Counted from the first letter of the stretch, positions 2,681-10,141 are shown. The stretch is DNA of 64,000 nt from Gemmatimonadota bacterium (GCA_039586095.1 JBDHLB010000015.1:2349-66348); one strand, 5' to 3'. Made by a program: numbers and translations. The notes: generated by a model not told the origin, from the letters alone.

Positions 2681-3049
2681 ATGCGTACAATGAAGCGGCG
2701 AATTGCCTCTAACGCGGGGGACTCAGTGAGAGATTATGAGGCCTATTGTACGGCCTGCGGCACGCGAGTCGTCGTCAGCCTCGACACGCCGCCCGACGGC
2801 CCGATCGACCTCGCCGGTGTCGATTGCCTGGACAAGGTGGTCTCCTGCGAGAAGATGGAGTGCCCGCTCGTCGACATCACTCCCGACAACTTGCCGAACC
2901 GGCTCGAGTTCCTACCGGCCCAGCTCCAGGGTGGTCGCGAGCGCGGCATGCAGGAGAGCGCGGACCTCGTGGAGCGTGCGCGGTCTACCTCCGTCAGGCT
3001 CCAAACCGAACGAAGACCCCGAGATCACCCCGATGACGAGGGTGCTTGA
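2681..3049 (+). CDS. Small Cys-rich hypothetical protein (putative metal-binding)
   Basis: YCTAC plus CLD...SCEKMECP; start uncertain (2681/2690/2723). Confidence 0.6.
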   Translation: MRTMKRRIASNAGDSVRDYEAYCTACGTRVVVSLDTPPDGPIDLAGVDCLDKVVSCEKMECPLVDITPDNLPNRLEFLPAQLQGGRERGMQESADLVERARSTSVRLQTERRPRDHPDDEGA

Positions 3050-3164
3050 GTTGTGGCTTCTGGGGCTGCCAGGGTCGGCCCCCATCCAGATAGCCAGCTC
3101 CGGGGGCGGGGCGTACTGTTAGGCAGCCCCAGGGCAGCGCGACCCTCTTGCCGAGGCAACCTGC

Positions 3165-4652
3165 ATGAAGCGACGGCAGCCCAACCTGCTCGACCAGCTG
3201 GCGCCGGGAGCGGACGACGGCGACGCTGCGTTGCAGCTGGAGGACGGGTCACGTGTCGCGGTCATCGGGGGAGGACCCGCCGGCTCCCTGTTCTCATTCT
3301 TCCTGCTCAAGATGGCCGAGGCGATCGACCTCGAGGTCGACCTCGAGATCTACGAACCGCGCTCGTTCGAGCGCTGCGGCCCTGCCGGCTGTAACCACTG
3401 CGGCGGGATCGTGTCGGAGTCCCTGGTCCAGATCCTCGCCACCGAGGGCGTCAACCTCCCACCCAGCGTCGTCCAGCGTGGGATCGAGTCCTACGTGGTC
3501 CACATGGACGTCGGCAGCGTAACGATCCAAAGCCCGGTCGGCGAACAACGGATTGCGGCGCTCTACCGTGGGAACGGCCCACGGGAGGGCGGCACTCTGC
3601 CGTGGGACTCGTTCGACGCGTACCTGCAGGGGATCGCGACGGAGCGGGGCGCCCGCGTCGTTCGAAAGCTCGTCACAGGAGTGGAGTGGGAGGATGGCCG
3701 GCCGAGCCTGGTTGACGCGGACGGGCGTGCTCGGCAATACGACCTCGTCGCGGTCGCGGCGGGCGTGAACAGCAACTTTTTCGATCTGCTGGAGATCGAG
3801 TCCGAGGCCCCACGGGCGCCGCGCACCACCCGCACCTACATCTGCGAGTTTCGTTTCGGCCGCGAGACGATCGAGCGCGTGCTCGGCAACTCGATGCACG
3901 TCTTCCTGCTCGACCTGCCTCGACTCGAGTTCGCGGCCATCATTCCCAAGGGTGAGTTCGTGACCCTGTGCTTGCTGGGCGAGGAGCTGGATCAGGAGCT
4001 CATCCAGGCTTTTCTGGGTTCACCGGTTGTCCAGCGCTGCTTCCCGGAGGAGTCGGTACCGGCGGTGTGCAGCTGCGCGCCGCTCATCAACATGGGAGGT
4101 GCCCGCCGACCGTTCGGCGATCGGGTTGTGCTGATCGGCGACTCCGGTGTGACGCGTCTCTACAAGGATGGCATTGGGGCCGCCTACCGAACTGCGAAGG
4201 CAGCAGCCGCGACGGCTGTCTTCCAGGGGATCTCGGCCGAAGCGTTTCGGCGACACTACTGGCCCGCCTGCCGCGCGATCGCGCGCGACAATGCGATCGG
4301 GAAGGGTCTGTTCGCCGCAACGACCTTCCTCAAGCACATCCGTCTCACACGGCGTGCCATACTCCGCATGACGCAGCGGGAGCAGAAGAAGGCGAACGGC
4401 GCACGCCACATGAGCTCGCTCCTATGGAACATGTTCACGGGAAGCGCCCCGTATCGTGAGATCTTCGTGGGTGCCTTGCACCCGGGTTTCATCGGCGGTC
4501 TGCTCTGGAATCTCGCGCTCGGTGCTAGGTCGGCCGGCGCGAGTGAGCCAGCGCGTCCTTGCGAAGGCGCCAATGCGCGAGGCGAGGAGCCCGCGGACAC
4601 GGAGGGCACGGAGGCGGACGCAGAAATCGGAGACGAGTTGATCCATGCGTAA
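3165..4652 (+). CDS. FAD-dependent oxidoreductase, geranylgeranyl-reductase-like
   Basis: VAVIGGGPAGS Rossmann motif, GCNHCGG, LIGDSG...YKDGIGAA; overlaps the next gene by 8 bp. Confidence 0.8.
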   Translation: MKRRQPNLLDQLAPGADDGDAALQLEDGSRVAVIGGGPAGSLFSFFLLKMAEAIDLEVDLEIYEPRSFERCGPAGCNHCGGIVSESLVQILATEGVNLPPSVVQRGIESYVVHMDVGSVTIQSPVGEQRIAALYRGNGPREGGTLPWDSFDAYLQGIATERGARVVRKLVTGVEWEDGRPSLVDADGRARQYDLVAVAAGVNSNFFDLLEIESEAPRAPRTTRTYICEFRFGRETIERVLGNSMHVFLLDLPRLEFAAIIPKGEFVTLCLLGEELDQELIQAFLGSPVVQRCFPEESVPAVCSCAPLINMGGARRPFGDRVVLIGDSGVTRLYKDGIGAAYRTAKAAAATAVFQGISAEAFRRHYWPACRAIARDNAIGKGLFAATTFLKHIRLTRRAILRMTQREQKKANGARHMSSLLWNMFTGSAPYREIFVGALHPGFIGGLLWNLALGARSAGASEPARPCEGANARGEEPADTEGTEADAEIGDELIHA

Positions 4653-5040
4653 GGGAGCGCTCGGCAAGCGATACGCGGACGGTGAGCCCATCGTGACGCA
4701 GGGCGAGATGGGCGACTGCATGTACGTCGTTCAGGGGGGTGAAGTGGAGGTCGTGCAGACGACCAATAACGGCGAGCAGCGCCTGGCCGTGCTCGCGCCC
4801 GGCGACTTCTTCGGAGAGATGGCGATCTTCGAGAAGGAGGTGCGTTCGGCCACCGTGCGCGCGCTCGGAGAGGCGCGCGTGCTGAAGGTGGACAAGAAGA
4901 CGCTTCTGCGCCGAATCAAGGAGGATCCGCTGCTAGCCGTCAACATCCTGCAGGCGATGTCTGGGCGTATCCGCGGCCTGAACGCCGAGGTCGCACGGAC
5001 CCGTGCCGGATCACCGGGCGCTGGCTCGGGAAGAGGCTAG
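4645..5040 (+). CDS. Stand-alone cyclic nucleotide-binding domain protein
   Basis: IVTQGEMGDCMYVVQGGEVEV, GDFFGEMAIF, RSATVRA; no HTH domain. Confidence 0.9.
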   Translation: MRKGALGKRYADGEPIVTQGEMGDCMYVVQGGEVEVVQTTNNGEQRLAVLAPGDFFGEMAIFEKEVRSATVRALGEARVLKVDKKTLLRRIKEDPLLAVNILQAMSGRIRGLNAEVARTRAGSPGAGSGRG

Positions 5041-6760
5041 GGCGTTGGTCGAGGCACGTTCGGGCGGTGACACGTCGCAAGAGCACGCTTGGGCACCCGA
5101 CGCCGGGGGCGTCACCGATGTCGGCGAGGCTGCCGGCGCCACACCCGAGCTCCCGCGCTTCGAGCCGCGACAGGTTGAGAAGCAGGCGCCCTGCCAGGGA
5201 GGGTGTCCGAACAGCGGCGATATCCGGGGCTGGATCGGGACCGTAGCCCAGCGTCACAAGCTCGGCCTGTCGCGGGAGGAGGCCTACACCCGCGCCTGGC
5301 GCATGATCACCGACGTTAACCCGTTCCCCAGCGTACTGGGACGGGTATGTCCCCACCCGTGCGAGTCGCACTGCAACCGCTCCGAGAAGGACGGTTCGGT
5401 AGCGATCAACGCGATGGAGCGGTTTCTCGGCGACTGGGCTATCGAGAATTCGATTCCGCTCGCCTCGCTCGAGGCCGGGCGGCAGCCCGAGTCGATCGGG
5501 GTGATCGGCGCCGGGCCATCGGGCCTCTCTTTCGCCTACCAGATGGCCCGACGCGGGTATCGGGTGACGGTCTACGAGCGCCGGGCCGAGCCGGGAGGGA
5601 TGCTGCGTCACGGAATCCCCGACTACCGCCTGCCGCCCGAAGTGCTGGAGGCCGAGATCCGGCGGATCGTGGACCTGGGTGTGGAGATCCGGCTGAACAC
5701 TGCGATCGGTCGCGACGTCATGCTGGAGGAGCTTCGCGACCTCCATCCCATCCTCTTCCTCGGCATCGGGGCCCAGAAGGGGCGTCGACTCGGCGTGCCG
5801 GGCGAAGAGGGCCCCGGCGTTTGGAGCGGCACCGACTACCTCGATAGGGTGAACCACCACAAGCCCGTGAGTCTGGGTGAGCAGGTGGTCGTCGTAGGCG
5901 GGGGCAACACGGCTGTCGATGCGGCCCGTACCGCCCGCCGATCGGGGGCCGAGGTGACGCTCCTCTACCGCCGCACGCGTGCCGAGATGCCGGCGACTCC
6001 CGGCGAGGTCGAAGAAGCGATCGCGGAGGGTGTGGCGCTCGAGTTCCTGGCTGCTCCGGTGGAGTTGGAACGGTTGAACGGAGGACTCGAGACAGTGGTC
6101 GTACAGCGTATGCAGCTGGGTGAGCCCGACGAGTCGGGGCGTCGACGCCCCCTGCCGATCGAGGGATCGGAGTACCGCGTGCCGGCCGACTCGCTCATCG
6201 CGGCGGTTTCGCAAGAGCCCGAGTGGGATGGCCTCGACGCGCTCGATCTCGGAGACCACTGGCCGGAGGCAGACGAGAGTGGTGTGGTGATCGACGGCGT
6301 GTACGCTGGCGGGGATGTGCTCGGTCTGGGAATCGCCGGCATGGCGATCGCCCACGGCCGACGGGCAGCCGAAGCGGTGCATGCCCGTCTGCGTGGTCTT
6401 CCCCCGCCTCCGCCGGAGTCCCGGGAGACGGTCGGCGCAGATAACATCCTGATGGAGCTGCACGAGGAGAAGCCTCCCGCGCTCCCGCTCCACCTGTCGC
6501 CCGAGGAAGGGCTCGCGCATCCGGAAGCGGAAGTGAGTAGGGGGATCACGGAGACGGCGTTCCTGGAAGAGGCCGAGCGCTGCTTCTCGTGTGGGATGTG
6601 CTACGGCTGCCAGCACTGCTGGATGTATTGTACACCGGGGTGCTTCACGAAGGTCGAGGAGTCACGACCGGGGGTCTACTTCACGCTCTCGCTGGACGAG
6701 TGTGAGAAATGCGGCAAGTGCATCGAGGTGTGTCCGTGCGGCTTTCTGGAGGTTTCCTGA
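5003..6760 (+). CDS. dsrL: DsrL-like (DsrL-2 type) NAD(P)H-dependent iron-sulfur flavoprotein, GltD superfamily with C-terminal ferredoxin
   Basis: PCQGGCP..DIRGW, NPFPSVLGRVCPHPCESHCNR, GAGPSG, GGGNTAVD, LYRRTR, EAERCFSCGMCYGCQHCWMYC and CEKCGKCIEVCPCG. The GltD+ferredoxin architecture is certain; the DsrL assignment and the start are less so. Confidence 0.6.
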   Translation: MPDHRALAREEARALVEARSGGDTSQEHAWAPDAGGVTDVGEAAGATPELPRFEPRQVEKQAPCQGGCPNSGDIRGWIGTVAQRHKLGLSREEAYTRAWRMITDVNPFPSVLGRVCPHPCESHCNRSEKDGSVAINAMERFLGDWAIENSIPLASLEAGRQPESIGVIGAGPSGLSFAYQMARRGYRVTVYERRAEPGGMLRHGIPDYRLPPEVLEAEIRRIVDLGVEIRLNTAIGRDVMLEELRDLHPILFLGIGAQKGRRLGVPGEEGPGVWSGTDYLDRVNHHKPVSLGEQVVVVGGGNTAVDAARTARRSGAEVTLLYRRTRAEMPATPGEVEEAIAEGVALEFLAAPVELERLNGGLETVVVQRMQLGEPDESGRRRPLPIEGSEYRVPADSLIAAVSQEPEWDGLDALDLGDHWPEADESGVVIDGVYAGGDVLGLGIAGMAIAHGRRAAEAVHARLRGLPPPPPESRETVGADNILMELHEEKPPALPLHLSPEEGLAHPEAEVSRGITETAFLEEAERCFSCGMCYGCQHCWMYCTPGCFTKVEESRPGVYFTLSLDECEKCGKCIEVCPCGFLEVS

Positions 6761-6790: not shown

Positions 6791-9700
6791 CTACACCGAG
6801 TCCACAGCGGTCGGAGTCTTCTCCGGCTTCACCGGAGCTCCCACACCCAAAATCTCGGGGTTCGGATCCACCGTGAGGAAGTGGCGGCGCGCCTCCGGGT
6901 CCGGAATGCGATAAGCCTTCTCCCGCACGATGTCCCGGGCTTCCTCGAGCAGGGATTCGGCTTCTTCGGCCCGCCCCAGCGCGGCTACCGCCCGTGCACG
7001 GGCCCACACGACGGCCTCCTCCGGTCCCTGGATGCTCCCGTGACGCCGCATCCGACGGAGCGCGGTCATGGACAGTCGGTCAGCCCCGTCTGTGTCTCCG
7101 CGTTCGAGCGCCAGTTCCGTCTGCCGCGCCCGCGCAAGAATGTCGATGTGCACGAGTCCGGTGCGCGCAGACAGCTCCCGGGCCTTCGCCGCCCAACGTT
7201 CTGCCTCTTCTCCCTCTGCGAGCTCGGACAGAGAGAGCCAAGTGCGGGCTTCCAGCGCCGGTCGGCCCGCCTCGTGCGCCCGCTCGGCTGCGCTCAGCAA
7301 CAGCGTGCGGGCCTCCTCCGATTTCCCGGCCGCCGCAAGAACGAATCCGAGCGTCATCTCGCCCGTAGCCGCCGCCGATACCGTGTCGAGTTGACCTGCC
7401 AGCTCCAGCGCTTCGCGGGCCGATGCCTCGGCCGACTCGTACAGACCGAGCCAGCGGAGCGCCGTCGCACGATGGGCGAGGACGCGGAGCTCCATCATGC
7501 GATGCCCGTGCTCACGCGCCCGCTGCAGCACCTCGTCGAAGTAGTCGAGCGACCGCCAGAAGTCGTCCAGGTCGACTTCGACCAGGCCCAGCCGATCCAG
7601 AAGCTCGAGCTCCGCCCACCGATCCCCGGCCGCCTGATGGAGCGGCAGGGCGGCCTCGTAATGTGACCGGGCGGTCGGGTAGTCGCCCCACAGGTGAGCG
7701 ACGCGGCCAAGCAAGGAGTGCAAAGCGCCCAACGGGCCCGATCCGTCGGCCTCGCGCACGAGCTCCAGGGCACGAGCACCTTCTCGCTTCGCCGCGGCCA
7801 GCTTGCCGCGTGCGAGAAGCGCGCGAGCGTAACGATAACCGGCTTCCGCCCTGCTTTCCGGATCCCCTCGAAGATCGGCCAGTTTGCGGAGCTCCTTCAC
7901 TACCTCCTCCCACCGTTCGCTATCCCCCATTGCTGCGACGACGTCCTCCGTAATGCAGAGGAGCGCGAACCGCTCGTCGTCTTCCTGGGAAGCCGCGTAG
8001 GCGCGCTCCAACAGGTCCAGCGCGTCCGGGAGCGCGCCCTGAGCTCTCGCCCGCATCGCGGCTCGCTCCAGGTAGGGCGCGGCCAGCGGTCGATGGGTCG
8101 AGCGCTCGTAGTGGAAGGCGATAAGCTCATCGGACTCGGACGAGCGGGCCGGCAACTGCCTCTCGAGCCACCGCGCGACACCCCCGTGGAGCTCGGCCCG
8201 CAGACCGCGAAGGAGCCCCTGGTAGGCGACCTCCTGTAAGAGCAGGTTCTCGAACCTGTACTCCCGCTCGCCGTCGACCACGGACTCGGGGAGCGACTTC
8301 ACGATTTCCCCCTGCAGCAGCTCCTCCAGCTCGGCATCCACCGGCTGCTGCGCCAGCACATCGGCGAGCACGCCCGACCAGAAGTGACGGCCCACGATCG
8401 AGGCGTACTGCAGCACCCGCTTGGTGGAGGAGCTGAGCCCGTCGATTCGGGTGCTGAGCAGGCTCTCCACCGTGTCCGGGATCTCGACCCCGGATAGATC
8501 GCCGGTCGCCTGCCACACTCCGTCCTCCGAGTGGATCAGCCCACGATCGGCGAGCGACTTCAGCATCTCCTCAAGGAACAACGGGTTGCCCTCGGCGTGC
8601 TCCAGCGTCCGGCCGACAAAGGGAGCCGGAAGACCGTGCTCCCCGAGCACGGCATCGATAAACGCACGAGATTCGTCCCTGGAAAGCGGGGGAACCTGCA
8701 TCTGCTCCGGTAAGCTCTCCAGAAGTCTTGCCAGCCGCGTCTCGCTCGGCAGGGGTGTGCGCGTGACCAGAACCAGGAACACCGGCGACCGCGGAAGCCG
8801 AGCGGGCAGGGAGGCGAGCAGGTCGAGCGTGGCTTGATCGGCCCAGTGCAGATCTTCGAGGACGAGTATGCGCGGCTCCGCGGCTCCGATGTCGAGCGCC
8901 CGCACGGCCGCATCGGCCACGCGCGCTCGGATCTCCGGAGAGCCGTATCCGACCAGCTCCGGCAACCCCGAGGCCGGCGAACCGAGCGCGACGGCGAGAG
9001 CCGCCTGTTCCTCCTGACTCCAGGAAAGGCCGGCTCGCTCGACGAGTGACTGCGCGACCTCCGCGGGCTCCCGGTCAGCAAGCTCGCCATGAAGGTTGCG
9101 GAGCAGCTCGGCGATAGTCTCCCACGGCGTGCTGCTGGCGTACGGATAGCTGCGGCCGAAGGTAACGTGCTCAGGGGGGACACGCTCGGACTCGAGCAAC
9201 TCGAGCACGAGTCGCGACTTCCCGATCCCCGGCGGACCGTGGACGAGGCAGTACCGCACGTCGCCGCCCTGCACGCCGGTCCAGTGAGCGCGCAGGGTGC
9301 CCAGCTCGGCGTCGCGTCCGATGAACGGGGTACGGCGTCCGCCGAAGCCGCGTTGACGTCCCCGCTCGGGCCGGAGGCCCATGACCTTCCGGGCTACGAC
9401 AGGTGCCTGCTTCCCTCGGACCCGGAGGGTCTGCTCGTCTCCGAATTCGAAGATATGCCTCGTTGGCTCGAACGTCGTGCTGCCGACCAGAATATCGCCG
9501 GGCTCGCAGGCGGTCTGCAGACGGGAAGCCACGTTCACGGTGTCCCCGACCGCCGTGTAGTTGCGAGCTCCACCGCCGGAGAACACCCCCGTGACCACGG
9601 GGCCAGTGTTGATGCCGATCCGCAGCTGGAGTGGCCCCCCCGATTCGGCGAACTCCGCTCCCGCCTCCTGCCACCACCGATGCAAGGAGGTGTGCATGTC

Positions 9701-10141
9701 GAGCGCGGCACGGATGGCCCGCTCTTCCTCGTTTTCATACGCGACGGGAGCCCCGAACAGGGCCATGACGCAGTCGCCGATGAACTTGTCGACGAAGCCA
9801 CCCCAGCGCGTCACGCTCTCGCACAATGGATCGAGACAGCGGGCCACGAACTGGCGAACGCGCTCCGGATCCAGCTGTTCGGTGAGCGAGGTAAAGCCCG
9901 ACAGGTCGGCGAAGAGGACGGTGATGATCCTGCGGTCCGCCTCCGCCACGGTGCCCAGCTCGGCACCACAGTCTGCGCAGAAGCGCGACCGGACCGGATT
10001 CCACGTCTGACACGCCGGGCATGCCGCCCCGTGTACCTCCGACAGCGGCGCGCCACACGCAGGACAGTAACGAGCACGCCGGGGGGCACCGGCGCCGCAC
10101 GCCGAGCAGCTCGCAGATCGCTCCCGATTCAGACGCTGCAT
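6791..10141 (-). CDS. Class III adenylate/guanylate cyclase with zinc ribbons, AAA/STAND ATPase and TPR repeats
   Basis: Four CxxC; LFADLSGFT, DKFIGDCVMALFG, GDTVNVASRL; Walker A GPPGIGKS, LEDLHWAD, GNPLFLEE; helical repeats at the C-terminus. Confidence 0.9.
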   Translation of the reverse strand: MQRLNRERSASCSACGAGAPRRARYCPACGAPLSEVHGAACPACQTWNPVRSRFCADCGAELGTVAEADRRIITVLFADLSGFTSLTEQLDPERVRQFVARCLDPLCESVTRWGGFVDKFIGDCVMALFGAPVAYENEEERAIRAALDMHTSLHRWWQEAGAEFAESGGPLQLRIGINTGPVVTGVFSGGGARNYTAVGDTVNVASRLQTACEPGDILVGSTTFEPTRHIFEFGDEQTLRVRGKQAPVVARKVMGLRPERGRQRGFGGRRTPFIGRDAELGTLRAHWTGVQGGDVRYCLVHGPPGIGKSRLVLELLESERVPPEHVTFGRSYPYASSTPWETIAELLRNLHGELADREPAEVAQSLVERAGLSWSQEEQAALAVALGSPASGLPELVGYGSPEIRARVADAAVRALDIGAAEPRILVLEDLHWADQATLDLLASLPARLPRSPVFLVLVTRTPLPSETRLARLLESLPEQMQVPPLSRDESRAFIDAVLGEHGLPAPFVGRTLEHAEGNPLFLEEMLKSLADRGLIHSEDGVWQATGDLSGVEIPDTVESLLSTRIDGLSSSTKRVLQYASIVGRHFWSGVLADVLAQQPVDAELEELLQGEIVKSLPESVVDGEREYRFENLLLQEVAYQGLLRGLRAELHGGVARWLERQLPARSSESDELIAFHYERSTHRPLAAPYLERAAMRARAQGALPDALDLLERAYAASQEDDERFALLCITEDVVAAMGDSERWEEVVKELRKLADLRGDPESRAEAGYRYARALLARGKLAAAKREGARALELVREADGSGPLGALHSLLGRVAHLWGDYPTARSHYEAALPLHQAAGDRWAELELLDRLGLVEVDLDDFWRSLDYFDEVLQRAREHGHRMMELRVLAHRATALRWLGLYESAEASAREALELAGQLDTVSAAATGEMTLGFVLAAAGKSEEARTLLLSAAERAHEAGRPALEARTWLSLSELAEGEEAERWAAKARELSARTGLVHIDILARARQTELALERGDTDGADRLSMTALRRMRRHGSIQGPEEAVVWARARAVAALGRAEEAESLLEEARDIVREKAYRIPDPEARRHFLTVDPNPEILGVGAPVKPEKTPTAVDSV

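Follow-up and report, generated by a model that had tools for sequence, protein, structure and literature searches.

In this study, we describe a three-gene module encoded in 64,000 nucleotides of DNA from a Gemmatimonadota bacterium (GCA_039586095.1, JBDHLB010000015.1:2349-66348), hereafter the window, in which positions are counted from the first letter. Three closely packed genes between positions 3165 and 6760 encode, in this order, a flavoprotein with four invariant cysteines, a small protein predicted to bind a cyclic nucleotide monophosphate (cNMP) and an iron-sulfur flavoprotein resembling DsrL (Table 1). The explanation that we find probable is that these genes specify one enzyme system, in which an offshoot of DsrL serves as the electron donor of a cNMP-controlled four-cysteine flavoenzyme. 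A preliminary description of this DNA had offered two options, either a dissimilatory sulfur metabolism with a displaced dsrL or the recruitment of DsrL to an enzyme resembling geranylgeranyl reductases (GGRs) under cyclic-nucleotide control. Gene order, natural fusions, phylogeny and a model of the complex support the second one.

The three genes travel together across phyla

Scanning one genome per species with the flavoprotein yielded 72 loci, all of them in metagenome-assembled genomes (MAGs), whose flavoproteins are 54-85% identical to that of the window. The loci belong to Gemmatimonadota (32), Gammaproteobacteria (22, from Lysobacterales/Xanthomonadales, Woeseiaceae and Chromatiales), Actinomycetota (11), Verrucomicrobiota (2), Desulfobacterota (1) and Acidobacteriota (1), and three are unplaced; the labels of the trio-carrying MAGs include Gemmatimonadota, Woeseiaceae/Lysobacterales, Acidimicrobiia and others, and their isolate names are of the sediment type. 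Wherever 450 nt or more of downstream DNA is available (62 loci), the flavoprotein gene is followed by a cNMP gene, and a DsrL-like gene comes after these in 47 of the 49 loci with at least 2400 nt of further DNA. These counts were taken from tblastn; greedy calling of open reading frames (ORFs) swapped some genes for antisense shadow ORFs (clusters 6, 14, 15 and 20). Five more metagenome loci display the same context. A lack of conservation of the trio in other genomes, which the preliminary description had named as a reason to abandon its reading, is therefore not what we found, and the neighbourhood of the three genes is conserved in several phyla. Within Gemmatimonadota, 401 genomes contain 14 close orthologs (at least 53% identity) and 9 distant ones, and the module is present in 5 of the 30 genomes of the window's own family. 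Because of this patchiness and of the 55-70% identity between phyla, the trio looks like a mobile accessory module. One metagenome contig carries a permuted order, cNMP, flavoprotein, DsrL-like (L102:3008-6492). Two long-read-derived MAG contigs have the DsrL-like gene broken into two or three frames (L026:9836-11448 and L036:9834-11459), and the breaks stem either from pseudogenisation or from indel errors.

Each component occurs naturally fused to each of the others

A second line of evidence comes from proteins in which the components are covalently joined. When the longer relatives of the cNMP protein are ranked, the best 120 comprise 96 fusions of flavoprotein and cNMP domain, 15 proteins with a flavoprotein followed by two cNMP domains, three that join the cNMP domain to a DsrL-like protein, three cNMP tandems and three of other kinds. 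Direct fusions of flavoprotein and DsrL-like protein are found in P0271 and P0272, both without a cNMP domain. Every pair of components is thus joined by fusion, the domain order equals the gene order, and the fused proteins were drawn from several sources and many clusters. The sensor of the window had been called stand-alone, which holds in that it has its own gene; however, since 111 of the 120 longer relatives are flavoprotein-cNMP fusions, it is the separated counterpart of a C-terminal domain which the flavoenzyme usually carries itself. A 697-aa fusion of flavoprotein and cNMP domain, P0342, has an additional C-terminal PilZ domain (48.3 bits), which hints at cyclic di-GMP as a second input. 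More distantly, around 30 flavoprotein relatives at 27-43% identity are fused to NDH-2-type or other FAD domains (P0288 and P0309 among them).

Many loci contain a fourth, optional component. A divergent gene for an SRPBCC protein of the Polyketide_cyc2 type lies beside the flavoprotein gene in 29 loci (19 of the 22 gammaproteobacterial, 9 of the 32 Gemmatimonadota and the single desulfobacterotal one), and a DUF2867 gene is found in 12, either between the cNMP and DsrL-like genes (six in Gemmatimonadota) or beside the trio (six in Actinomycetota), so that 41 of the 72 loci have an SRPBCC or DUF2867 gene in or next to the operon. Fusions of DUF2867 exist with each component in turn: with the DsrL-like protein in P0124, with the flavoprotein in four SDR-DUF2867-flavoprotein fusions (P0273-P0276) and with the cNMP domain in P0386. 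A metagenome scan with P0124, an SRPBCC-DsrL-like fusion, gave 80 context-labelled loci and did not recover the fusion itself, the matches starting at about residue 143-190. The operon of the window includes no SRPBCC or DUF2867 gene. Elsewhere in the same genome, C61:7639-12399 (L181) encodes an SDR-DUF2867 protein, an amine-oxidase-type flavoprotein, a steroid-reductase-like DUF1295 membrane protein and a cyclopropane-fatty-acid-synthase-like methyltransferase; this cluster looks like a lipid-modifying set that shares DUF2867 with the module.

The putative electron donor is a close relative of DsrL

The domain reading proposed earlier for the last protein, an N-terminal Fe-S region, FAD and NAD(P) domains with a YRR motif and a C-terminal ferredoxin, was confirmed by Pfam and by alignment. 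Between the Fer4_20 and Fer4_7 domains (residues 60-150 and 533-580) lie Pyr_redox_2 (166-451) and Pyr_redox (295-342). Five cysteines of the N-terminal domain (C64, C68, C116, C120 and C124) and six of the ferredoxin domain (C527, C530, C533, C536, C539 and C543) are invariant, and C567, C570, C573 and C577 are conserved in at least 90% of the sequences. The linker that precedes the ferredoxin domain spans about 60 residues, equal to that of the aligned dsrAB-linked DsrLs; part of Loffler et al. (PMC7596348) states about 100 residues for DsrL.

Against the DsrL model NF009410 (PRK12771), the window protein scores 508.5 and nine other trio-type proteins 458-508, all below the cut-off of 516, whereas the eight dsrAB-linked proteins score 563-696, all above it. 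The window protein is also below the cut-offs of TIGR01316 (307.5 vs 471.75) and TIGR01317 (164 vs 447.7). Identity to the window protein falls in steps: 52-89% for proteins in trio context (52-59% in the metagenome loci), 45-56% for dsrAB-linked proteins in metagenome loci and 46-48% for Gemmatimonadota DsrLs encoded right after dsrAB, 39-43% for a second dsrAB type in metagenome loci, 34% for a gammaproteobacterial DsrL from a dsr cluster and 33-41% for proteins linked to POR.

In a FastTree of 202 rows, the trio proteins form one clade (support 99) beside the dsrAB-linked ones, inside a clade that is itself supported at 99. In an IQ-TREE analysis of 59 rows, the trio clade has a support of 100/99 and groups with the dsrAB-linked proteins at 99/97 to the exclusion of the POR-linked paralogs; it is nested with the main dsrABL group (99/99), apart from the gammaproteobacterial DsrL and from the second dsrAB type. 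The dsrAB-linked rows appear as one clade in none of the 200 bootstrap trees. Nevertheless, their monophyly was not rejected by the approximately unbiased (AU) test on the 59-row tree (p 0.164) nor on a quick tree of 104 rows (p 0.60), where the constrained tree had a higher likelihood than the free, nesting one. The trio clade may hence be either sister to dsrAB-linked DsrL or nested in it, and on these trees DsrL is its nearest relative. Grouping with GltD or with the paralogs linked to 2-oxoacid oxidoreductases, for which the preliminary description had asked the phylogeny to be checked, was not seen.

The genome of the window holds three paralogs on other contigs, 30-37% identical, two of them linked to POR/KOR and one fused to a 2Fe-2S domain. 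They are a 773-aa POR-gamma fusion beside porA/porB-like genes, which falls in another clade of the trees (C42:44617-46938), a 611-aa protein near a KorB-like gene (C76:47260-49095), and an 843-aa protein near 2-hydroxyacyl-CoA dehydratase-like genes, whose N-terminus reads like a 2Fe-2S ferredoxin (C46:4123-6654). The DsrL-like gene of the trio adjoins the flavoprotein, cNMP and cyclase genes, and not genes for POR or ketoisovalerate:ferredoxin oxidoreductase.

The YRR motif (Y322, R323 and R324) deserves a separate comment. It had been taken as a marker of DsrL-2, and part of PMC7596348 links it to NADP(H) use in DsrL-2 and describes it as a mark of DsrL-2 only. In our alignment, none of the 44 trio and DsrL sequences departs from it, and its value as a DsrL-2 marker was not borne out. 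The window protein has no long insert in the NAD(P) domain. The gammaproteobacterial DsrL of one dsr cluster (L079:16120-17931, in genome G042) combines YRR with the long insert typical of DsrL-1A, which is at odds with the published rule. Because the motif is invariant in all 44 sequences, the insert-bearing one included, we read it as an NADP(H)-type pocket and not as the signature of DsrL-2.

A flavoprotein with a cysteine tetrad

The first protein of the trio had been described as GGR-like, and the likeness holds at the level of the fold but not at that of the family. Its match to GG-red-SF (TIGR02032) extends over positions 3-296 of the 297 of the model with 36.2 bits (E value 5.3e-9) and does not reach the cut-off of 158.8; the match to DAO is weak (20.3 bits). 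Comparison of an AlphaFold (AF2) model built from 49 sequences (mean pLDDT 72.3) with 48,161 chains by VIA-align placed the GGR-like protein Ta0516 first (3oz2; Z 24.3, root-mean-square deviation 3.6, 343 aligned residues), followed by EtfC/FixC (7koe_G, Z 23.8), a brominase (22.4), a tetracycline destructase (22.4) and SaGGR (3atq, 22.3), with many group-A flavoenzymes down to Z 17. On this model the fold (GGR/FixC, PHBH-type) is certain and the GGR/FixC subfamily is suggested. The family is large: 5545 of the 8000 candidates scored are relatives at E values of at most 0.001, and their names are 'hypothetical' or 'flavin-dependent dehydrogenase'. A profile of the family found nothing significant among PDB sequences (best E value 0.012), and the ESM Atlas returned only unnamed or generically named clusters.

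A distinctive signature defines this family, namely GP-x-GC-x2-C-(G/A)-G, (Y/F)RG-x-GP, (I/V)PKG, C-x-C-x-P and GD-x3-(S/T)R-x-YK(D/N)GI. It is invariant among 49 orthologs and is kept in 40 fused relatives at 27-60% identity. The FAD motif GxGxxG is present as GGGPAG (residues 35-40). About 40 residues further on, C79-G-G would sit, to judge by spacing along the chain and by the secondary structure of the model, in the loop that connects strand 2 to the helix after it. GGRs have an essential flavin-proximal catalytic cysteine, Cys47 of SaGGR, as described in part of PMC10821996, and on the same two grounds C79 may occupy the matching site. The lowest-confidence internal stretch of the model is 114-143.

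A probable cyclic-nucleotide subunit on the flavoprotein

The second protein matches PF00027 with 88.5 bits (cut-off 27.5) and consists of the beta-barrel and the C-helix. Within its phosphate-binding cassette (FGEMAIFEKEVRSAT), F56, G57, E58, R67 and A69 are invariant in 36 orthologs and S68 and T70 are conserved in at least 90% of them; the cassette is likewise intact in 65 cNMP orthologs. Its closest solved relatives are the cyclic-nucleotide-binding (CNB) domains of PKG and PKA. The protein has no helix-turn-helix and ends past the C-helix, the match to the CRP model covering positions 26-136 of 214 with 51 bits, against 266.

We modelled the complex of flavoprotein residues 28-455, the body of the DsrL-like protein (58-465), the cNMP protein and cAMP. 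The cNMP-flavoprotein pair obtained an ipSAE of 0.61 (0.63, 0.57 and 0.61 in the three runs), compared with 0.41 for the best control; the mark that we applied is reached by 116 of 157 solved complexes and by 2 of 215 mismatched pairs. At least 86% of the contacts agree among the runs, and the partners have a pLDDT of at least 79. All confident contacts are on the flavoprotein, at residues 86-106, the helix right after the C-x2-C loop, 125-131 and 342-371, and the sensor contributes residues 4-8, 28-31, 52-55, which are beside the cassette, and the C-helix (80-101). No confident contact of the cNMP protein with the DsrL-like protein was obtained in this model, in which the latter was restricted for reasons of size to its body (58-465); neither the result nor this restriction is counted against such contacts. 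The complex is consistent with the predominance of flavoprotein-cNMP fusions, and we infer that the cNMP protein would be a regulatory subunit seated on the flavoprotein.

A candidate source of the nucleotide lies next to the trio. The convergent gene downstream encodes a 1116-aa protein with a double zinc ribbon, a class III adenylate/guanylate cyclase domain, AAA_16 and TPR, whose best NCBIfam match is a TOMM kinase/cyclase fusion model (253.7 bits vs a cut-off of 705.75). In 11 Gemmatimonadota loci the trio has an ortholog of this gene (55-89% identity) at its side, and a class III cyclase domain is encoded in 25 of 32 Gemmatimonadota loci, compared with 1 of 22 in Gammaproteobacteria and 0 of 11 in Actinomycetota. 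This enzyme is probably the source of cyclic nucleotide in the lineage of the window, and the distribution of the cyclase makes the source of the signal lineage-specific.

Proposed mechanism

A model that accounts for these observations would run as follows. The DsrL-like subunit would oxidise NAD(P)H, most likely NADPH, at its own FAD and send electrons one at a time along its two N-terminal [4Fe-4S] clusters towards the tethered C-terminal two-cluster ferredoxin domain. This domain would then reduce the FAD, and perhaps also a cysteine-bound centre, of the four-cysteine flavoprotein instead of DsrAB, and the flavoprotein would in turn reduce its substrate, most likely a quinone or isoprenoid of lipophilic character in the membrane region. 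The cNMP subunit on the flavoprotein would gate the activity in response to cAMP or cGMP, which in the window's lineage the adjoining class III cyclase probably supplies. At the level of the module we are largely confident of this mechanism, and the lipophilic nature of the substrate is a tentative assignment that falls somewhat short of an even chance.

The genes with their domains and cofactor motifs, the conserved order, the fusions, the separate clade beside DsrL and the lack of dsrAB are observations, whereas the direction in which electrons flow, the preference for NADPH, the gating by cNMP and the class of substrate are inferred. The preference for NADPH follows from the YRR motif together with PMC7596348. 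A lipophilic substrate is favoured because of the SRPBCC/DUF2867 partners, the NDH-2 fusions of distant members and the fact that GGR and EtfC are the best folds; these NDH-2-type NADH dehydrogenase fusions and the same two folds also fit an electron-accepting role of the family. According to part of PMC10821996, GGRs are reduced by ferredoxin-type partners, and GGR paralogs occur with ferredoxin genes in their loci. A more far-reaching proposal, which we regard as doubtful, is that DsrL was captured as an NADPH electron injector, that the four-cysteine flavoprotein together with an SRPBCC/DUF2867 partner reduces a quinone or saturates an isoprenoid, that this would be the first redox enzyme family with a dedicated cNMP domain or subunit, and that cAMP would through it directly retune membrane redox or lipids in uncultured sediment bacteria belonging to several phyla.

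Alternative explanations

Might the module act on sulfur instead? The same architecture could serve sulfur or disulfide chemistry, with the C-x2-C motif as a redox-active disulfide and a persulfide, a polysulfide or a protein or low-molecular-weight disulfide being reduced with NADPH electrons delivered via the DsrL-like protein, as a Dsr-independent sulfur function inherited with DsrL. C76-x2-C79 is invariant and, by sequence spacing, in the loop of the flavin-proximal cysteine of GGRs (PMC10821996, in part), the electron donor descends from DsrL or is sister to it, and the source runs are sediment, seawater or soil metagenomes, all of which would suit such a chemistry. However, the lipid-binding SRPBCC/DUF2867 partners and the NDH-2 fusions indicate a lipophilic substrate, the top fold matches are isoprenoid and quinone enzymes, and genes of the dsrEFH or rhodanese type are not prominent among the conserved neighbour clusters, although no search directed at these families was made. 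On balance we consider the sulfur chemistry unlikely, if the best placed of the alternatives.

Electron bifurcation or confurcation, in which an NfnB-like FAD would split the electron pair of NADPH and send one electron downhill to the four-cysteine flavoprotein with its high-potential substrate and the other uphill, via the ferredoxin domain, to an acceptor of low potential, appears improbable. It is true that the closest solved sequences of the DsrL-like protein are GltD-like modules of Nfn/Stn-type enzymes (9bov_A, 4.3e-106; 9n5u_A; 8oh5_C; NfnB 5jca_L, 3e-80) and that the flavoprotein finds its second-best fold match in EtfC, a subunit of the bifurcating EtfABCX, but no bifurcation is reported for DsrL in the accessible part of PMC7596348, and no gene for a second low-potential partner is conserved in the loci.

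The DsrL-like protein might also be a genuine, displaced DsrL serving a DsrAB encoded elsewhere, the two upstream genes being unrelated to it. DsrL architecture, YRR and 46-56% identity to dsrAB-adjacent DsrLs would be expected of such a protein, and the genome of the window is a MAG that is 85.65% complete. As far as this completeness allows, the absence of dsrAB noted in the preliminary description was borne out, as models TIGR02064 and TIGR02066 found no dsrA or dsrB in it, and aprA gave only a partial match of 32 bits. The genome does encode a DsrC/TusE-family protein and an ATP sulfurylase, two families that also match control genomes that are not dissimilatory. Across Gemmatimonadota, dsrA exceeds its cut-off in 7 of 401 genomes and in none of the 30 genomes of the window's family, which include one of the same genus that is 91% complete. 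Among trio-bearing genomes of all phyla, it does so in 2 of 50, this search covering 50 of the 72 loci. One of these dsrA carriers, G042, has a dsr-cluster DsrL (34% identical) besides its trio copy (59%). In another genome, G099 (Gemmatimonadota; L091, C91:137159-138478), a dsrAB-DsrL cluster exists alongside a copy of the four-cysteine flavoprotein (53% identity), and the dsr and four-cysteine systems can therefore coexist. The NF009410 cut-off, missed by all ten trio-type and passed by all eight dsrAB-linked proteins, and the existence of relatives in which such a protein is fused with either the flavoprotein or the cNMP domain likewise speak against a displaced DsrL. A dissimilatory sulfur metabolism with a displaced dsrL, the other option of the preliminary description, is accordingly unsupported and this explanation is close to refuted. 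Least credible of all is a Pycsar-like anti-phage system in which the cyclase makes its nucleotide on infection and the cNMP protein activates a toxic redox effector: the cyclase does match the Pycsar cyclase model PDLC00734 (89.2 bits, PADLOC) and the cNMP protein the nucleotide-binding part of Pycsar effectors (46 bits), but these matches are to shared domains only, neither Pfam nor PADLOC found a TIR or membrane effector domain, the cyclase is missing from nearly all gammaproteobacterial and actinomycetotal loci and, in our judgement, three proteins that are 55-90% identical across phyla in a fixed order are unlike fast-evolving defence islands.

The interpretation that we favour, one enzyme system with a DsrL offshoot as donor of a cNMP-controlled flavoenzyme, has points against it as well. 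Two loci (L055 and L064) have the flavoprotein and cNMP genes without an adjoining DsrL-like gene, and because of these and of P0271 and P0272, which do without the cNMP domain, neither partner is obligatory. Some of the fusions, read from protein records, could be gene-calling errors over overlapping genes, and the neighbourhood of the cyclase in Gemmatimonadota could be inherited synteny. The absence of dsrAB from the genome of the window is not proven, given the completeness of the MAG. The margin of the complex over its control is exactly the 0.20 required, and the calibration is approximate, with self-made alignments and a riding ligand. As for the flavoprotein, GGR/FixC are within 2-4 Z units of halogenases and monooxygenases (24.3 to about 20), and Foldseek against the PDB put flavin halogenases on top at a TM of about 0.5; we relied on VIA-align because the Foldseek result was not discriminating. 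The cavity motif PxxYxWxFP that part of PMC10821996 gives for GGRs is not kept. The stretch reads PRLEFAAIIPKG (RLEFAAIIPKG), and in the counterpart, a correspondence that is a reading of the sequence, Y and W are lost and the terminal xP alone remains. The regions of the cysteine motifs are among the less confident ones in the model (10-residue block means of 54 for residues 71-80, 65 for 291-300 and 66 for 301-310), and for the four cysteines a metal cluster and disulfides are both conceivable. Finally, we found no paper on this gene set in the literature.

Layout and expression of the locus

The four ORFs are where the preliminary description had placed them, closely spaced or overlapping, and all the motifs quoted in it (GCNHCGG, YRR and the ferredoxin motifs CFSCGMCYGCQHCWMYC...CEKCGKCIEVCPCG near the C-terminus of the DsrL-like protein) are present in the translations. 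The flavoprotein and cNMP genes overlap by 8 nt. The DsrL-like gene starts either at a GTG at 5003, with a 38-nt overlap with the cNMP gene, or at a TTG at 5045, 4 nt past the cNMP stop and preceded by a GAAGAGG ribosome-binding site.

Table 1. Features of the module and of its surroundings in the window.
Feature	Position	Strand	Evidence
Small Cys-rich ORF, 122 aa	2681..3049	+	Coding-like codon statistics
Catalytic flavoprotein gene, 495 aa	3165..4652	+	GGR/FixC (PHBH-type) fold; weak GG-red-SF match
GCNHCGG motif of the flavoprotein, residues 75-81	3387..3407	+	C76 and C79 invariant in 49/49 orthologs
C-x-C motif of the flavoprotein, C302 and C304, then invariant P306	4068..4076	+	Alignment columns
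cNMP-binding protein gene, 131 aa	4645..5040	+	PF00027, 88.5 bits
Phosphate-binding cassette of the cNMP protein, residues 56-70	4810..4854	+	Conserved residues in orthologs
DsrL-like NAD(P)H-oxidising Fe-S flavoprotein gene, 585 aa	5003..6760	+	NF009410, 508.5 bits vs cut-off 516
N-terminal Fe-S domain of the DsrL-like protein, Fer4_20, residues 60-150	5180..5452	+	Pfam and invariant Cys
YRR motif in the NAD(P) domain of the DsrL-like protein, residues 322-324	5966..5974	+	Invariant in 44/44 aligned sequences
C-terminal ferredoxin domain of the DsrL-like protein, two [4Fe-4S] motifs	6578..6757	+	Fer4_7, 533-580
Zinc-ribbon/class III nucleotide cyclase/AAA_16 (STAND)/TPR protein gene, convergent with the trio	6791..10141	-	Pfam

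Each of the three genes is matched in part, at 99% identity or more, by contigs from RNA libraries (four libraries, two studies). One of them (4946-5118) crosses the junction between the cNMP and DsrL-like genes, and another (2975-3303) runs from the 3′ end of the small ORF into the flavoprotein gene. Their depth is 2-3 and parts of the stretch are uncovered; because of this depth and of possible DNA carry-over, they give only a hint of expression. The runs in question, those that contain DNA of the window as well as the five RNA runs, derive from metagenomes of sediment, seawater or soil. At position 3251, RNA-library contigs of three runs have G where the window has A, probably as a result of strain variation.

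The small Cys-rich ORF upstream has no match in Pfam, NCBIfam or PADLOC. Its GC content by codon position (0.67/0.49/0.76) resembles that of the adjoining genes, and it differs from its counterpart in a related locus (L001) at 21, 7 and 43 sites in codon positions 1, 2 and 3, as a real gene probably would. It is lineage-specific, present in only 1 of the 72 related loci, and hence lies outside the conserved module. A promoter scan returned one sigma-70-like site at 2663-2691 (0.3 expected) and a terminator scan nothing convincing past 6760; neither was used as evidence. Further upstream, 740-2071 on the minus strand encodes a protein of 443 aa in which a long N-terminal part carrying a CPHC motif precedes a VKOR domain (80.8 bits) at the C-terminus. 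This protein, which is conserved in L001, resembles a fusion of a thiol oxidoreductase and VKOR.

Comparison with known systems and implications

How does the module relate to enzymes already described? In EtfABCX, a GGR-fold flavoprotein receives electrons from a ferredoxin module with two [4Fe-4S] clusters and reduces a quinone. The logic of EtfC/FixC with EtfX/FixX (7koe), from ferredoxin to GGR-fold flavoprotein, is analogous to the one proposed here, and this flavoprotein is the second-best fold match; the trio, however, has no ETF subunits, its ferredoxin is tethered to a DsrL-like protein that would oxidise NAD(P)H, and a cNMP subunit is added. With the GGRs (Ta0516, 3oz2; SaGGR, 3atq), the flavoprotein shares the best fold match, GxGxxG, C-G-G and a weak full-length match to GG-red-SF, but it adds the C-x2-C/C-x-C tetrad and the motifs YRGxGPR and xRxYK(D/N)GI, and PxxYxWxFP is replaced. 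DsrL type 2 is, according to part of Loffler et al. (2020, PMC7596348), an NADP(H):acceptor oxidoreductase partner of DsrAB. The DsrL-like protein shares the identical domain order and YRR, its NAD(P) domain is short and has no insert of about 32 residues, and its clade is the nearest one to the dsrAB-adjacent DsrLs. It differs from DsrL-2 in coming from a genome without a dsrAB match (48 of 50 carriers are without dsrA), in forming a clade of its own (100/99) below the NF009410 cut-off, and in being genetically linked, sometimes fused, to the flavoprotein and the cNMP domain and not to DsrAB. NfnB and GltD have the Fe-S and FAD/NAD(P) core in common with it (NfnB 5jca_L, 3e-80; GltD 2vdc_G, 4e-57), whereas the trio protein is below the cut-offs of TIGR01316 and TIGR01317, the POR-linked paralogs are 30-37% identical and that of C42 is in another clade; clades of POR-linked GltD-like subunits of the NsoC/KGOR-alpha type are listed in PMC10134865. 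Finally, the sensor has the same PF00027 domain and cassette as the CNB domains of CRP and PKA, but no helix-turn-helix, kinase or channel of its own, and its predicted output is the flavoenzyme. Each part of the module is of a known kind, and the combination of DsrL-family electron input, GGR-fold flavoenzyme and CNB domain is undescribed.

These findings bear on surveys that take DsrL as an indicator of Dsr-based sulfur metabolism. The trio clade is 46-56% identical to dsrAB-linked DsrL and occurs without DsrAB, and homology alone could mislabel its carriers as sulfur cyclers; if our interpretation is right, trio proteins counted as DsrL in metagenome surveys would inflate the inferred potential for sulfur cycling. 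The NF009410 cut-off and the gene context separate trio-type proteins from true DsrL. Beyond this, the module brings into view a large uncharacterised flavoprotein family with an invariant C-x2-C/C-x-C tetrad, whose members either occur together with a partner that oxidises NAD(P)H or are fused to one. If the proposed gating is correct, cyclic nucleotides would control a metabolic redox enzyme through a dedicated domain and not via transcription, which would be unusual in bacteria.

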